Below are positions 18,722 through 37,603 of a stretch of 64,000 nucleotides of DNA, piece by piece (the first letter of the stretch is position 1; the number at the start of each line of letters is the position of its first letter). Below the pieces are notes generated by a model. It had not been told where the DNA came from, made no database searches, and saw nothing but the letters and a program-made list of their open reading frames with translations. This DNA is from an uncultured archaeon (GTDB taxonomy: Archaea; Asgardarchaeota; Lokiarchaeia; Sigyniarchaeales; SOKP01). A program made the position numbers and the translations under genes. The stretch spans positions 1-64,000 of the forward strand of contig CAZBPC010000003.1 of NCBI GenBank assembly GCA_964493715.1. The letters run 5' to 3'.

Positions 18722-19003
18722 CTAAACTTCTTGTAATTCAAATTTCTTTACTCGATAAGATTTAGCATATTGTTTCTTACCACAGTCGCCGCATTCTAAT
18801 ATTGGTAAGGATCTTTTATTTAACTTGGCATTTTTATGGAAGATTTCTTTTGGGAATGAACCATATCCTCTCTTTTTTCTTTCAACTCTCCTTCTTCCCT
18901 GATTTAACATGCGTTCTTTTCCTTTCTTATATAGCGATACATTATGCTGCGTATGTGCTCTGCATTTAGGACAATAATGGTTTACTGTTCTTGGATAGCG
19001 AAT
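18722..19003 (-). CDS. rpl44e: 50S ribosomal protein L44e; probable ATT start
   Basis: The frame extends upstream of the track ORF: IRYPRTVNHYCPKCRAHTQHNVSLYKKGKER...GYG...LECGDC, 93 aa. Confidence 0.93.
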   Translation of the reverse strand: MRYPRTVNHYCPKCRAHTQHNVSLYKKGKERMLNQGRRRVERKKRGYGSFPKEIFHKNAKLNKRSLPILECGDCGKKQYAKSYRVKKFELQEV

Positions 19004-19191
19004 ATGAATCCTCTCGAGTTTTTGATAACAATCGATAAAAAATATATATTGGAATCTAATTAAGCAATAATTATAAATTTTATTATTTCCTTAGCCTAAG
19101 CTCTTAAATTATGAATTATTAATTAGAGTTAATAGATAAGATTTAAAATTATAGATTCATAATTAAAATAAATTTTTTTATTAGGATTACG

Positions 19192-20112
19192 ATGTTTAAA
19201 GAAAAATTTAAAGAGGGAATTATAACAGCTAAAGATTTCACTCGGGATGATATTGATTATATCCTAAAGAAAGCAAGAGGAATGATTAGCAATGATAAGA
19301 ATTCACAACTTTTAAGCAATAAAATCTTAGCTACGTTATTTTTTGAACCTTCTACAAGAACTAGGCTTAGTTTTGAGTCAGCAATGCATAGATTAGGTGG
19401 AAGTGTAATCGGTTTTCATAAGGGAGATGTTTCTTCTGTCACAAAAGGAGAAACTCTCGCAGATACGATTAGAACAGTAGAAAATTATAGTGATTGCATT
19501 GTGATTCGCCATAATATGGAGGGAGCTGCAAAATTAGCCGCGAAGTTTTCTAGGATTCCTATCATCAATGCAGGGTCTGGTAGTGGTGAACATCCTACTC
19601 AAGCTTTATTAGATTTATTAACAATAACTGAAGAAGGGCAAAAGTTGGACGGCATAAATATCGGAATTATGGGTGATCTCAAGTATGGAAGAACTGTTCA
19701 TTCTTTAACAATCCTATTGTCAAATTATGATGCAAATATATATTTAATAAGTCCAAATGAACTAATGCTACGAAATCGAGACAAGGACTTCTTGCAAAGA
19801 AGACAAGTAAAATATAAAGAAATCACTCAATATCGTAAGATTTTAGATGTGCTAGATGTTTTATACATGACTCGTATTCAAAAAGAAAGGTTTCCAGATG
19901 TTGAGGAATATGATCGAGTGAAGAATTTTTATGTATTTAGAAGCGATGATCTTGAGGAGACAAAAGACAATTTCAAACTCATGCATCCCTTACCAAGGAT
20001 TACAGAGATTTCTCCTGAAGTGGATAGTTCCCCTAAAGCTATTTACTTCAAGCAGACTCACTATGGGGTTCCAATGAGAAAAGCAATATTAGCAGAATTA
20101 TTATCTGATTAA
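19192..20112 (+). CDS. pyrB: Aspartate carbamoyltransferase catalytic subunit
   Basis: FFEPSTRTRLSF, HPTQ, GDLKYGRTVHS, HPLPR. Confidence 0.97.
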   Translation: MFKEKFKEGIITAKDFTRDDIDYILKKARGMISNDKNSQLLSNKILATLFFEPSTRTRLSFESAMHRLGGSVIGFHKGDVSSVTKGETLADTIRTVENYSDCIVIRHNMEGAAKLAAKFSRIPIINAGSGSGEHPTQALLDLLTITEEGQKLDGINIGIMGDLKYGRTVHSLTILLSNYDANIYLISPNELMLRNRDKDFLQRRQVKYKEITQYRKILDVLDVLYMTRIQKERFPDVEEYDRVKNFYVFRSDDLEETKDNFKLMHPLPRITEISPEVDSSPKAIYFKQTHYGVPMRKAILAELLSD

Positions 20113-20121
20113 TTTTTTGAC

Positions 20122-22098
20122 TTATTTTGGGAATATTGCGTTTATTTTTGATTTTTTTAATAAAATTAATAAGTTAAAAAGATCCTGTTCATCCTGACAG
20201 TCTGGGAGATAAAATATATTTCCCCCATCAAGTACCATTTGAAATTTTTTAAATAGATCAAGTTGTTTATCAATAGATAAAGTTGATTCTTGTCTTATAA
20301 TAGAACTGGAATAGCATTTAGCCTTCATAGAAGGATCAAACGGATTATTATTAGAAAAATCAATCAAATGATGAGGTTGAGTCAAGACATAATTTTCTCC
20401 TAAATCTTCATTCTTTTCTATAATCATTAGTTTTATTATTTCTAGCATTTTCAAGGCAAATTTTTCACTAGTCTCGATTCGATCCAACTCAATTCCACAA
20501 TGGTATTCTGTTGCTTCGTTTAACCCTATAAAGCTAATGGCTTTTATTGAGTTCTTTAAAAGATTTCCTGGTGTAGTATTAAAAATAGTCTCGCATATAT
20601 TTATCCAACGTTCTTGAAAATTCAATTTCTTGTCTAACAAATCTTTTTTAATCTCAAAAAACTCGAATATGTGAGAGATTTTCTCACAAAGAATTTCTTC
20701 AAAGTGATCATCATCTCCCTTTGAATTTACTGCGACTTTATGTAAGTTTATCAAAATTTTATCGAGGATTACATTATTAGGTATTAATCTTTGTATGGAG
20801 GGTGATTTTTTTACACAAATTGCGGTTGAATTTAATAATCCAGATGTTTTCTTGCAATAAAACTGAGTATTATAGTTTAAATTGTTGATAAGATTGTGAT
20901 CATCGTTTATTAAATCTAAACCTGAATATTCAAACAATATAAGTGGAGAATGTCCTTTCAAATTTGATTGGCATTCCTTATTCAAGCAATTCAAAAATCT
21001 TTGGGCTTCAATCATGCATTCTTTCTTATTAAATGAAAAATCTAAAGACAAAGCTGATCCATTACTGAGATAAGCACTATTTTGGCAACATAATTTAAGC
21101 AATTCTGATACTAAAAACTTGAATATTAAATCATCATGCCCTTTCAGGGAATATAATAAAGTAGAATCGAAATCACTTAGTAGAATGTCTTCAGATACAT
21201 AGGGATGTATATTTGAAAGTTTAGTCATAAATGATTGAATCATACGAAAAGCTTTTCGAGGGTCATTCGAATCATAAATTTTGGTATCATTTTCCTTACA
21301 AATTACATCCAAAAGCGTTTTTGTTTTTATGTAAGCACCAAGTGGTCTTAAACTCCAATAATTTAAGTTTAAAAGGATAATATCCCCAGAAAGGTAGAGA
21401 TCAGCAAGATCCTTAGGCAACAAGTTAAGAAGTAAAAATTGCTCTGAAACATCAGATCCAAGCTCGTGTAAAAACATTTCTGGATTAATATGTTTATCAT
21501 TAAATAATTTCTTAGCTTCAAAAGGAGGGGTTCCTAAACGTGTTAATCGATGTCTTACGTGTTCTAATCCGTTTTCTAACAATATACCATTTATATATTC
21601 ACGCATTAATGGAGTGGTCAAATATTCTACCTCAGTTCGAGAAAGTCTTTCGCTTACTTCATTTGCAATTTGTTTAGCCCGAAATAATTCCATTCCCCCC
21701 TCCCTTACTAAATATTTTTCTATATTCTCAAGATTAAAAGGTTCTGTAGAATATCTTGAAGTACGGATCATTATAGATGTATCTTGATTGTTAAGAATCT
21801 GTTCCATTGAAATTATATTTCCTAATATTTTCTTACCTAATAACGTAAGTAAGTAACCTTCATCAGAGGTTTCAATTAAATCGTTAGTCTTCAATACTTT
21901 AAGATGAAAAGAAAAATTTACTGAATTCGGATTTGATCCTAAAACTTGTTTCTGAAGCAAGGAATAACTCACAGGAGTAGTATTATTATTCAAATTCTTT
22001 AAAATATCTAGTCTAATCTTCTGACCTAATATCTTTAATTGCCGTTCTAATAGATCACTATTTTTGTCGGAATCCACTTTATTTATCCTATTATTCAA
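20122..22098 (-). CDS. ArsR-type wHTH + ATP-cone + degenerate NrdD (class III RNR)-like protein
   Basis: IRLDILK...FSFHLKVL...YLLTLLG (wHTH); IRTSRYSTEPF...LTTPLMREY (ATP cone); INLHKVA, SFIGLNEA, LDGGNI (NrdD barrel-like); no glycyl-radical loop. Confidence 0.8.
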   Translation of the reverse strand: MNNRINKVDSDKNSDLLERQLKILGQKIRLDILKNLNNNTTPVSYSLLQKQVLGSNPNSVNFSFHLKVLKTNDLIETSDEGYLLTLLGKKILGNIISMEQILNNQDTSIMIRTSRYSTEPFNLENIEKYLVREGGMELFRAKQIANEVSERLSRTEVEYLTTPLMREYINGILLENGLEHVRHRLTRLGTPPFEAKKLFNDKHINPEMFLHELGSDVSEQFLLLNLLPKDLADLYLSGDIILLNLNYWSLRPLGAYIKTKTLLDVICKENDTKIYDSNDPRKAFRMIQSFMTKLSNIHPYVSEDILLSDFDSTLLYSLKGHDDLIFKFLVSELLKLCCQNSAYLSNGSALSLDFSFNKKECMIEAQRFLNCLNKECQSNLKGHSPLILFEYSGLDLINDDHNLINNLNYNTQFYCKKTSGLLNSTAICVKKSPSIQRLIPNNVILDKILINLHKVAVNSKGDDDHFEEILCEKISHIFEFFEIKKDLLDKKLNFQERWINICETIFNTTPGNLLKNSIKAISFIGLNEATEYHCGIELDRIETSEKFALKMLEIIKLMIIEKNEDLGENYVLTQPHHLIDFSNNNPFDPSMKAKCYSSSIIRQESTLSIDKQLDLFKKFQMVLDGGNIFYLPDCQDEQDLFNLLILLKKSKINAIFPK

Positions 22099-22255
22099 TA
22101 TCTCAAGTCCTAGTTATCTAATTATTGCACATGACTGTATTTAAAATTTAGGAACTAATTGATTGTGCACTAATTTTTCATAATATCTGGGTGATATATA
22201 AGCCAATTATATAAAAAAATGCATACATAAAAAGTAGTATTAAAAAATGTGAATT

Positions 22256-22873
22256 TTACCTAGCAGAGACCGCAATGCGTTCAATTTCATCCTTCTTTTT
22301 CACTGCGCGCGATTCTTGACTATTATCTGCTGCAAGTATCAATTCTTGTGCCAAATTTGAGGCAAAATCTTTCTCATTTGAATGAGATCTTGCACTAATT
22401 GCTTGAACAATGTATTTTATTCCAAGATCAACTCTCCTTTGCGGTGATATATCAACAGCAGACGCGTAACTTATACCACCCATCGCTATCCTAGTAGTTT
22501 CTTCTCTAGGTGCGGAATTACATATCGCATCGACAATAACTTGGATAGGGTTTTTCCCAGTTTTCAATTCAATCAATATAAATGCGTTCAGTATCATTTT
22601 AATTAACTTGTTCTTTTTACCCGAATTATAGGAACTTTTACGTCCTTTGGTTTTAGATCCAATAAAACCGGGGGCTAATAGTCTGTTTATAAAACGCTCA
22701 ATGATTGATACCCGTGTTGTTTTCCAAAATCTTCGGTGCTCATGTCTTCCACAACTTTGAGGAATGATTATGGGTTTCAAATTGATATATGCTTCAAGCG
22801 TCCAATCAGATATTTCAATTTCGTTAAAAGACCATTTATTAAATAATTTTATGTCTGTAATTGTTTTACTCAT
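22256..22873 (-). CDS. rps7: 30S ribosomal protein S7
   Basis: KLFNKW, APREE, VDISPQRRVD, ERIAVSAR. Confidence 0.97.
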   Translation of the reverse strand: MSKTITDIKLFNKWSFNEIEISDWTLEAYINLKPIIIPQSCGRHEHRRFWKTTRVSIIERFINRLLAPGFIGSKTKGRKSSYNSGKKNKLIKMILNAFILIELKTGKNPIQVIVDAICNSAPREETTRIAMGGISYASAVDISPQRRVDLGIKYIVQAISARSHSNEKDFASNLAQELILAADNSQESRAVKKKDEIERIAVSAR

Positions 22874-36493: not shown

Positions 36494-37603
36494 CTAATTC
36501 TTAAATGATACTTTCTTTCTCATTTTATTTCCAGATAAATAAAGAATACAACACCCAGGACATATTGACATAAACTGTTTACGTGAAATATAATCTCTAA
36601 ACTTTTGATATTTCGATCCAAACCATATTTCTTCAAAAGTATTATCGTATAGATTACCCATAACGAGATCGTAAAAAATATGACATGGTGCTATATCTCC
36701 ATTGGCAACAATATCCGTTGAAACCCATGGAATAATGCAACTTTTATAATGATCGCTCATCTTACACCAATCAGCTTTTAGATAAGCCTCAAGATTCTCT
36801 GGTGTAAAAGAAGGGGGTAGAAGTAACAAATATTTATTCTTTTCTTTTAGTGCTTTCTTCACTCGAAAAACTTGACGTGATAACTCTGAACAATCTATAT
36901 TTAAAAACTCTTGAGGTTCTCTTACTAAACCTTTCCAATATTTAGCGTTTTCTATATTAAATTCTGTCTTTAAAAATCTGGCATAGGTTTCCCCCATTTG
37001 TTGAGTAATAAAATTTTGCATTTGTATGGTAATCCAATTAAAATGTTCAAGATTTAAATCTTTAAGAAAAAGTTCCTCAATTGAATCACAATTTTCAGGT
37101 GTGACTGTATAAATGATACTTAAATCTGGCTTTTTTGCATGTTGTTTCTTCTTCTCTTCAACAAGTGCTTCTATTCCAGCAATCGCTTTCTCATAACTAC
37201 CATTCCCTCTTTGAATATTATTTTGTTTACGGGGTCCATCAAGAGACACTCGAATGGAGTCGAATTTTGTCTTTACTAACATCATTGCGTTTTCCTCAAG
37301 CAATGTGCCATTGGTAGGAGTATCGACGAAACATTTAGTTTTTTTAATTTCTAGAATTAATTCTTCAAGACATGGATAAATTAAAGGTTCCCCTCCAAAT
37401 AGAGAATACATCGGATTTGCTGGAGCTAAATATTCAATTACCCGTTTTAATTTGTCAAAATCTAAAGAACTTGGTTTCATGTTTAATTTATTCTTAGAAT
37501 AAACCCCAGTTTCTCCAAAGTAATAACACATTTTACATCTTAAATTGCAATTCTCAGTAAGGTGTAAAGTAATATTTCGAGGCAGATTTAATTGTTTAGT
37601 AAT
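36494..37603 (-). CDS. Radical SAM/SPASM-domain protein; probable ATT start
   Basis: The frame extends upstream to complete LTENCNLRCKMC (CxxxCxxC); also GGEP, TNGTLL, VSLDG and a C-terminal C...GDIAPC...CPGC. Confidence 0.88.
   Translation of the reverse strand: MTKQLNLPRNITLHLTENCNLRCKMCYYFGETGVYSKNKLNMKPSSLDFDKLKRVIEYLAPANPMYSLFGGEPLIYPCLEELILEIKKTKCFVDTPTNGTLLEENAMMLVKTKFDSIRVSLDGPRKQNNIQRGNGSYEKAIAGIEALVEEKKKQHAKKPDLSIIYTVTPENCDSIEELFLKDLNLEHFNWITIQMQNFITQQMGETYARFLKTEFNIENAKYWKGLVREPQEFLNIDCSELSRQVFRVKKALKEKNKYLLLLPPSFTPENLEAYLKADWCKMSDHYKSCIIPWVSTDIVANGDIAPCHIFYDLVMGNLYDNTFEEIWFGSKYQKFRDYISRKQFMSICPGCCILYLSGNKMRKKVSFKN

Follow-up and report, generated by a model that had tools for sequence, protein, structure and literature searches.

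A class III ribonucleotide reductase turned pseudoenzyme with an ArsR-type winged helix-turn-helix and an ATP-cone in an Asgard archaeon: a candidate nucleotide-sensing regulator

Introduction

NrdR, the bacterial repressor of ribonucleotide reductase (RNR) operons, joins a Zn ribbon to an ATP-cone, and in NrdD, the catalytic subunit of class III RNR, the helical dimer interface holds the specificity site. Asgard archaea are the closest known relatives of eukaryotes, and, to our knowledge, gene-level control of nucleotide supply in archaea is largely unknown. NrdR is described as present in most bacteria and in only some archaea (NrdR abstract). Here we describe a protein, labeled X, in which a winged helix-turn-helix (wHTH) and an ATP-cone precede a dead NrdD, encoded on the minus strand at 20122..22077 of a 64,000-nucleotide stretch of an Asgard archaeal genome (contig CAZBPC010000003.1, positions 1 to 64,000; assembly GCA_964493715.1). 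This whole stretch is called the window below; the archaeal genome from which it comes has a low GC content (~31%), a total length of 3.68 Mb on 160 contigs and a completeness rating of 100%. X is a class III RNR catalytic subunit turned pseudoenzyme, to which an N-terminal ArsR-type wHTH has been added and in which the ATP-cone has been retained, and we lean toward the view that it acts as a homodimeric, nucleotide-sensing, DNA-binding regulator. An ATP-cone joined to DNA binding is known, and its realization on a dead-RNR scaffold appears to be new; no description of such a protein was found in a literature search that covered open-access papers and bioRxiv.

Results and discussion

Domain architecture of X

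20122..22077, minus strand: coding sequence of X, 651 aa from a GTG at 22077, with the stop codon at 20122-20124 (from the list of open reading frames (ORFs) and from relatives)
21817..22038, minus strand: ArsR-type wHTH (DUF7347, PF24038), aa 21-94, recognition helix ..NFSFHLKVL..
21559..21771, minus strand: ATP-cone, aa 110-180, motifs MIRTSRYSTEPF...KI, YLTTPLMREYIN and RHRLTRLG
20125..21522, minus strand: alpha/beta barrel derived from NrdD but lacking its Zn ribbon and glycyl-radical domain, aa 193-658

The ORF itself spans 20122-22098 on the minus strand, and an earlier note on this DNA had placed the start of the gene at its TTG codon (22098). That start has to be moved: relatives of 651 aa begin with MDSDKN at the residue matching the GTG at 22077, and because their N-termini agree with this codon, X more likely occupies 20122-22077. 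Residue positions nevertheless follow the 658-aa numbering from the TTG unless stated.

The derivation of the barrel from NrdD, which the earlier note had read from the segments INLHKVA, SFIGLNEA, YSSS and FQMVLDGGNI, is borne out by sequence and by fold. The Pfam family NRDD, a profile of 562 positions, matches aa 449-631 with its positions 283-475 (E 8.6e-17), and the NCBIfam NrdD equivalog gives 52 bits, far under its cut-off of 326. BLASTP of X against the full NrdD of its own genome aligns aa 121-297 (26% identity, E 4e-17) and aa 445-648 (24%, E 2e-9), and all four segments lie inside these alignments. Colinearity with NrdD begins at the ATP-cone and extends through the final strand of the barrel; the C-terminus of X falls a few residues before the first CxxC, so that it ends, as had been noted, ahead of both the metal site and the glycyl-radical loop. 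In a Foldseek search of the Protein Data Bank (PDB), a comparison that the note had proposed as a check, class III RNRs fill the top 36 ranks (E 1e-14 to 6e-10) for an AlphaFold2 model of X built from a 30-row alignment (predicted local distance difference test score (pLDDT) 78, predicted template modeling score (pTM) 0.71), followed at ~1e-4 by other glycyl-radical enzymes and class I RNRs, and the model has the ten-stranded alpha/beta barrel of the RNRs and glycyl-radical enzymes. A PDB search with the single sequence of X gave chance-level matches only, and in Pfam and NCBIfam no family besides NRDD, wHTH families and the ATP-cone matches X. Compared with the ATP-cone-bearing NrdDs of Prevotella copri, Streptococcus thermophilus and Thermotoga maritima, X has the same barrel fold and a colinear sequence, but it lacks the radical machinery, the Zn ribbon and the NxN flap and has the ArsR-type wHTH added at its N-terminus. 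With archaeal NrdDs it has in common the type of cone, an 'RTS/RTE' hairpin, YLTAPLIRE and TRLG.P.

The wHTH, likewise seen earlier, is recognized by DUF7347 (40.8 bits against a cut-off of 27.6, aa 21-94) and by an ArsR-type HTH model of NCBIfam, and in one orthologue (L097) HTH_5 scores 28.3 bits against a cut-off of 22. A profile made from an alignment of the N-terminal region (A3) matches ArsR (6j05, E 0.005), CzrA, HlyU and CadC in the PDB, with the recognition helix SyHLkaL of the X family paired with SfHLKnL of ArsR. A model of the first 195 residues (pLDDT 81) resembles the wHTH repressors YodB (5hs9, template modeling score 0.83 on the target), BigR, SqrR and HxlR. Thus the N-terminal 90 aa of X align with the ArsR/SmtB repressors (ArsR, CzrA, CadC, HlyU, BigR and SqrR), including the S-x-H-L-x-x-L helix, with marginal E values of 0.005-0.2. 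X differs from these repressors in that its sensor would be a cone and barrel of 550 aa rather than a metal or redox site within a wHTH dimer, and in that its dimer is predicted to form through the barrel and not through the alpha1 and alpha5 helices used by ArsR.

The same N-terminal model also matches the cones of NrdB (5olk, E 2e-3), NrdR (9a6n, 9fxk, 7p37 and 9fvr, E 5e-3 to 2e-2), NrdD (9d3x) and NrdA (5im3); for all fold matches of this model, wHTH and cone alike, E exceeds 0.001, yet the probability is 1.00. These matches place the beta-hairpin and four-helix fold of the cone in X. With the Pfam ATP-cone model (cut-off 25.8 bits), several orthologues score higher than X does (P0364, 35.9 bits; L094, 32.6; P0324, 31.9; P0390, 31.7; L096, 29.4; L097, 25.7), and all of these but L097, which falls just short, exceed the cut-off. 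Basic and aromatic residues of this region (R112, Y116, R166, Y168, R182, H183 and R187) are invariant. In the P. copri cone, the ligand contacts given in sections of PMC11226230 are Lys7, Arg8, Tyr83, Arg87 and Arg91. X and NrdR follow a common logic, in which a DNA-binding module is joined to an ATP-cone, and their cones are alike by fold, but X has a wHTH in place of the Zn ribbon, is ~650 rather than ~150 aa long, contains a whole dead RNR barrel and has no match to the NrdR family TIGR00244. As a regulator, X is analogous, not homologous, to NrdR.

Loss of the catalytic residues

20827..20838, minus strand: remnant of the finger-loop tip, 'LLNS', aa 421-424, which replaces the thiyl-radical cysteine (..CCR.. 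or ..GCR.. in NrdD)

We surveyed catalytic residues in an alignment of 144 rows, made up of 124 rows of the X family, 6 full Asgard NrdDs and 14 rows of a second, shorter type of dead NrdD (the C69 type, described below). The columns assigned to the thiyl-radical cysteine, the second cysteine and the radical glycine are consistent with alignments to T. maritima and P. copri NrdD and with passages of PMC11226230, which name Gly711 and Tyr712 as well as the Cys radical loop and the NxN flap and describe the flap as connecting the cone with the active site. X lacks both cysteines, thiyl and second, together with the NxN flap, the Zn ribbon and the glycine loop; the placement of LLNS at the finger-loop tip comes from multiple alignments only (A1, A2 and the 144-row alignment), as it lies outside the coverage of the pairwise BLAST alignments.

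The losses extend through the family. Only three of the 124 family rows (P0300, P0314 and P0361) have a cysteine in the thiyl column, and seven have one within three columns on either side. P0361 is a true NrdD that lacks the wHTH; at the place of the radical glycine, P0300 has a serine and P0314 has no glycine. Conversely, P0295 and P0371 retain RxxGY and lack the thiyl cysteine. A cysteine falls within two columns of the second-cysteine column in 9/124 rows, the four Zn cysteines are complete in 66/124, which are the deeper branches, and in 30/124 the radical-glycine column holds a glycine, which is mostly part of a GPY or GHY triplet. Where the NrdD of the same genome has ENAN, 122/124 rows show a gap at the first Asn of the flap. 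With the true NrdD P0361 set aside, in none of the 123 rows examined do the thiyl and second cysteines occur along with the radical glycine. X cannot act as an RNR by the known mechanism, its orthologues in this survey are not full-length active NrdDs, and, because no family row but P0361 keeps the full catalytic set, catalytic death is old and family-wide.

Loss of the C-terminal domain is later than catalytic death and lineage-specific. Twelve more distant loci carry syntenic orthologues of 703-773 aa, and in four of them (L094, L095, L097 and L100, from the GTDB families here numbered f9, f7 and f21) the C-terminus retains CxxC...CxxC and a degenerate glycine loop (RQVGPY, RNIGHY or SSNGPQ). 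P0269 and L097 match the NRDD profile over its full length (269 and 271 bits). The Zn ribbon is absent from the orthologues in f3 (L092, L093, L096 and L098) and from f1, the family to which the window belongs. In a FastTree tree of 92 rows, which is unrooted, made by a fast method and has several long branches flagged, every row without the ribbon falls within one clade of 27 rows (branch value 100), and a branch of value 99 separates the true NrdDs (P0361, the full Asgard NrdDs and the C69 type) from all rows that bear the wHTH.

A search for the NrdD activase is in keeping with the earlier statement that no nrdG lies near X. Nothing in the genome reaches the NrdG2 cut-off; there are 19 weak matches to radical S-adenosylmethionine (SAM) proteins, including a 199-aa ORF on contig C33, and none adjoins X. 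The sole one in the window (37151-37558, minus strand; weak NrdG2 match, 29.7 bits) belongs to a radical-SAM ORF of 369 aa, too long for NrdG and 15 kb from X.

Distribution of the family and selection

From 8000 candidates scored, a word-indexed search retained 472 proteins at E<=0.001. Among the 120 matches listed, in which identity falls as low as 46%, 118 have a length of 634-677 aa and the other 2 are fragments. When cluster representatives were searched exhaustively, 618 proteins matched at E<=1e-3, 312 at E<=1e-10 and 122 at E<=1e-30; many of these are 600-890 aa long and align from about residue 10, and thus include the wHTH. Within the phylum, 155 of 398 genomes have a match to X at E<=1e-20, and by GTDB family the matches amount to 122/132 genomes in f1, 12/14 in f3, 3/3 in f9 and 5/6 in f21; the X query found nothing in f13 (31 genomes), f15 (12), f16 (22), f18 (12) or f19 (19). 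Most members are named 'anaerobic ribonucleoside-triphosphate reductase' in public records, others 'hypothetical protein' or 'DUF7347 domain-containing protein', and one, in a record labeled Thaumarchaeota/Nitrososphaerota, 'ArsR family transcriptional regulator'. The family is found in Asgard archaea and in at least one record labeled Nitrososphaerota. In eight genomes (G204, G179, G209, G183, G218, G221, G211 and G146), the match to X carries one or two in-frame stops (TAA or TGA), which may be errors, signs of pseudogenes or alignment ends.

Among the window and the three loci nearest to it, the ratio of nonsynonymous to synonymous substitution rates (dN/dS; Nei-Gojobori) is 0.18-0.28 for X overall. 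By region it is lowest in the cone (0.05-0.11), followed by the wHTH (0.07-0.14), and is 0.14-0.26 in aa 436-651. The proposal that the truncated form is conserved under purifying selection is upheld; the deeper orthologues are longer and in many cases have the Zn ribbon and a vestigial glycine loop. X would be a clear case of an enzyme turned sensor, in which an essential enzyme has lost its radical machinery and the regulatory domains are under the strongest selection.

A predicted homodimer

Structure prediction with two copies of X (aa 193-658) and the family alignment gave a score of 0.79 (0.80, 0.78 and 0.79 in separate runs), and the best of three controls scored 0.00. The runs agree in at least 97% of contacts, with a partner pLDDT of at least 78. 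Among solved structures, 20 of 30 one-chain pairs and 1 of 23 single chains reach this mark, a benchmark that is approximate here, an alignment of our own having been used. The predicted interface is symmetric, comprises aa 195-225, 246-251, 280-300, 322-339 and 490-498, and includes the family's most conserved stretch, LGSDVSEQFLLLNLLP..LADLYLSGE, which is aligned to the N-terminal barrel helices of NrdD. X is thus predicted to form a homodimer through an NrdD-type interface, placed in the region that aligns with the N-terminal part of the NrdD barrel. NrdD dimers have already been solved, and the score may therefore reflect likeness to them rather than independent evidence.

The region upstream of X

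22180..22197, minus strand: conserved 18-bp element ATATCACCCAGATATTAT (consensus ATATCACCyryATATTATC), ~100-120 bp upstream of the X start codon
22138..22154, minus strand: BRE/TATA-like (B recognition element/TATA box) element TTCCTAAATTTTAAATA, 43 bp downstream of the 18-bp element, from an anchored alignment of 74 upstream regions

We compared the surroundings of X with those of 80 related loci, the best 80 of 106 confirmed among 127 pattern matches from public genomes. The 18-bp element stands at a fixed offset in 74 of the 80, lies ~20-28 bp nearer X in five and is a variant in one. In the 74 upstream regions a second conserved block, TTCCTAAATTTTTATATA, follows 43 bp 3' of the element; this BRE/TATA-like block is presumed to be X's own promoter. 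The 18-bp element is a candidate regulatory site, which could serve X as operator or activator site or be recognized by a different factor. An Rfam search of 19900-22400 returned only a sub-threshold match to SNORD107 inside the X ORF (E 0.16), which we take as chance, so no known RNA element accounts for the conserved upstream block. The element is absent from the 74 pyrB upstream regions, and by eye it was not seen upstream of nrdD or of the gene for the C69-type protein.

Gene neighborhood

19192..20112, plus strand: pyrB (aspartate carbamoyltransferase catalytic chain), convergent with X and ending 10 bp from its stop codon
22256..22873, minus strand: ribosomal protein S7, upstream of X, the last gene of an L30e-NusA-S12-S7 block

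The conserved neighbor of the X family is pyrB, not the ribosomal operon. The convergence of X and pyrB, recorded earlier for the window, recurs just 3' of X in 77 of the 80 loci, and the remaining three are contigs of 2.9-4.8 kb. Among the more distant loci, pyrB and X lie in that order on the same strand within ~60 bp in four (L093, L096, L098 and L099), on the same strand 1 kb apart in L092, in the order X, pyrB in L101 and convergently in L094, L095, L102 and L103; L097 and L100 have no pyrB within the stretch retrieved. On the far side of pyrB, in the intergenic region between pyrB and the divergent L44e gene (window 18911-19191), AT-rich blocks such as TAATTATTTATAAATTTTAAATTTTATTAGTTCTG and CATAATTTTAATAAAAC look near-identical by eye in all 45 loci inspected of 74 related ones and are probably a bidirectional promoter.

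In the window, rpoA'', L30e, NusA, S12 and S7 precede X, with S7 directly upstream, as had been reported. In 75 of the 80 loci, X is preceded by S7 on its own strand, and the gap between them is at most 700 bp in 45, 700-1700 bp in 8 and more than 1700 bp in 22. In the 24 larger-gap loci whose ORFs were listed, the gap mostly holds one to three ORFs on the opposite strand; L083 and L089 also have an ORF on the same strand, and L064 has no ORF of at least 80 aa. Of six gap ORFs scanned, four match Acyl_transf_3, one a double Zn ribbon and one, on the same strand as X, a methyltransferase. Where opposite-strand genes stand between S7 and X, X is not cotranscribed with S7 and needs a promoter of its own. 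The gap L016:3384-5684 and similar ones in part of the lineage hold genes for an opposite-strand membrane acyltransferase (Acyl_transf_3) and a double-Zn-ribbon protein.

Two functional substitutions suggested by this neighborhood were tried and rejected. X does not stand in for elongation factor 2 (EF-2), whose gene the earlier note expected after that of S7: two archaeal EF-2 (aEF-2) genes are present on other contigs (C1:99085-101256 and C76:3195-5402, the second with two TAG and one TAA in the matched frame). Nor does X replace PyrI, because PyrI and PyrI_C matches (95 and 56 bits) were found on contig C11. pyrB and pyrI are adjacent in many archaea; in this genome pyrI (C11:13350-13781) is unlinked from pyrB. 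One of the related loci, L042 (DATKTW010000033.1), is titled 'Candidatus Nanopelagicaceae bacterium' and carries an archaeal L30e-NusA-S12-S7-X-pyrB-L44e-S27e locus, so that its label or binning is doubtful.

Proposed function and alternatives

The wHTH and the cone are under the strongest selection, the radical machinery is lost, the dimer interface is conserved, X has a presumed promoter region of its own, which is conserved, and pyrB is a constant neighbor; together, these features make a regulator the most economical mechanism. X would dimerize via the NrdD-type helical interface, and its ATP-cone, possibly together with the remaining effector or substrate pockets of the barrel, would bind adenine or other (deoxy)nucleotides. 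Nucleotide occupancy would then shift the position or the oligomeric state of the two winged helices and so alter DNA binding. Likely targets would be the X promoter, via the 18-bp element, and/or genes of pyrimidine and deoxynucleotide supply such as pyrB. Nucleotide binding, DNA binding, these targets and the sign of regulation are what we infer for X. Combining a DNA-binding domain with the complete allosteric machinery of an RNR would make X a concrete, purifiable candidate for the control of nucleotide supply in archaea.

Several observations weigh against the reading of X as a nucleotide-sensing DNA-binding regulator. The ATP-cone that the earlier note recognized stands by its fold and by the scores of relatives, but in X itself PF03477 reaches only 17.3 bits against the Pfam cut-off of 25.8, and no ATP-cone is among the PDB sequence matches of the N-terminal alignment profile. 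The mid-barrel (aa 291-435) is the least constrained part (dN/dS 0.33-0.49) and lacks motifs common to the deeper members and NrdD, such as SGxQSxDxFNxFLAP; relaxed constraint and lost motifs make it less likely that the old substrate site is still used in the window's lineage. A barrel of ~450 aa is also large for the ligand domain of a regulator, and another role for it is conceivable. The 18-bp element is absent from the 12 more distant orthologous loci and is not a dyad; ArsR-type operators usually are dyads. When the 3.68-Mb genome was scanned with a position weight matrix (PWM) of the 74 sites, the X site scored 27.1 bits and the next-best sites 19.9, 17.5 and 16.4, which is the level expected by chance for 7.4 million positions, and there was no site at nrdD, the C69-type gene or pyrB; the scan thus yields the X promoter alone. 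With a single genomic copy, no regulon is visible, and another factor may bind the element. X differs in this respect from NrdR, as the scan found no repeated 'box' upstream of RNR genes.

A more specific form of the regulator, which we put forward tentatively and regard as rather improbable, is that X is an archaeal counterpart of NrdR, built independently from a reductase. X would then be a dimeric transcription factor whose cone reads the ATP/dATP ratio and whose retained interface (specificity) site tells which second (deoxy)nucleoside triphosphate ((d)NTP) is bound, coupling a signal of pool balance to expression of X itself and to the supply of pyrimidines and deoxynucleotides, above all through pyrB. 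On this reading, deeper branches that lack the catalytic cysteine and still bear a Zn ribbon and glycine loop may retain their C-terminal domain because it takes part in the switch.

The alternative that survives best, although we doubt it, is that X binds nucleotides and, as a regulatory or scaffold subunit, acts on proteins rather than on DNA (PyrB, an RNR or the replication machinery, for instance), its wHTH serving for protein contacts or for non-specific tethering to the nucleoid. That pyrB is the sole neighbor kept across orientations, convergent in most loci and close ahead of X on the same strand in four distant ones, would fit such a role, as would the unlinking of pyrI from pyrB in this genome and an upstream element that is not repeated as in a regulon. 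Adjacency to pyrB is, however, equally compatible with transcriptional control, PyrI is present and so has not been replaced by X, and the wHTH keeps the recognition-helix signature of ArsR and is among the most constrained parts of the protein.

It is distinctly unlikely that X is an enzyme with a non-radical activity in a remodeled barrel (e.g., nucleotide hydrolysis or transfer), possibly a bifunctional enzyme-regulator like BirA or PutA. In its favor are the lineage-invariant polar motifs HCGIELDR (H533, C534, E537 and D539), QPH (H576) and S302/D304, which are absent at the aligned positions of the full NrdD on contig C34. The deeper members do not have these motifs, so that the family shows no common active site; variation is greatest in the finger loop and mid-barrel, and only NRDD, wHTH families and the ATP-cone match the protein.

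We consider it just as improbable that X responds to dNTPs or NTPs as a chromatin protein or a replication-associated protein of low sequence specificity, and not as a gene-specific transcription factor. Its place at the end of a core information-processing block (rpoA'', L30e, NusA, S12 and S7) and the failure of the PWM scan to find a regulon are compatible with this idea, and the wHTH profile touches the chromatin protein Sso10a weakly (E 0.03-0.04). The Sso10a matches are, however, weaker than those to ArsR regulators, and the distance of more than 1.7 kb between X and S7 in 22 of 75 loci, with mostly unrelated opposite-strand ORFs in the gaps examined, makes the link to the block positional. 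Finally, a recently decayed or mis-assembled, functionless nrdD would account for the missing C-terminal domain and catalytic residues, but recent pseudogenization is excluded by an intact frame of the same length in 118 of the 120 homologues listed, to 46% identity, by dN/dS, by the matches in 155 of 398 genomes and by the separate full nrdD.

Other RNR genes in these genomes

The genome of the window has, as the earlier note had suggested checking, an intact nrdD elsewhere, which encodes on contig C34 a NrdD of 711 aa with a CPSC...CPKC Zn ribbon and an RVTGYY loop. There is no PF02867 match (class I/II large subunit) in the genome and, although it is rated complete, no NrdR (TIGR00244) match anywhere in it. 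Across the phylum, a full NrdD query matched 265 of 398 genomes, but only 4 of 14 in f3. With the NRDD family model, the X-like gene is the sole match in four of five genomes tested (G135, G138, G143 and G158); in the fifth, G161, the model detects an NrdD at 344 bits, which the protein query did not pick up. X thus persists without a recognizable NrdD and is not simply an accessory of nrdD, and these X-like genes, in genomes where the NRDD search finds nothing else, make it less likely that X serves NrdD alone as partner or regulator. Annotation of X as an RNR would mislead metabolic reconstruction, and genomes that have only X could be credited with a class III RNR that is absent.

That genomes without NrdD lack any RNR is unsupported, as weak NrdJ_Z-like ORFs occur there: G135, G138 and G143 contain ORFs of 769-892 aa with scores of 39-49 bits. 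The genome of the window has a similar ORF of 765 aa (C86:3170-3862), with a weak match to class II NrdJ_Z (31.6 bits). These NrdJ_Z-like ORFs may be divergent RNRs.

A second dead NrdD is encoded in the genome of the window at C69:7265-8692 (L002:1186-2976, plus strand). It is 596 aa long and 47% identical to the true NrdD, and an exact deletion of 23 residues removes its Cys finger loop. Proteins of this C69 type form a conserved family of ~590-625 aa that is sister to the full Asgard NrdDs (branch values 100 and 98). Both X and the C69 type are derived from NrdD, are conserved and lack the Cys finger loop and the Zn/Gly domain, but the C69 type has no wHTH. As X lies beyond the branch of value 99 from the C69 type, the two dead NrdDs are of independent origin.

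In ten genomes (G182, G215, G205, G235, G248, G157, G154, G155, G185 and G271), the nrdD frames are 1186-1687 aa long and the match begins at about NrdD residue 179-221, which suggests large insertions, possibly inteins.

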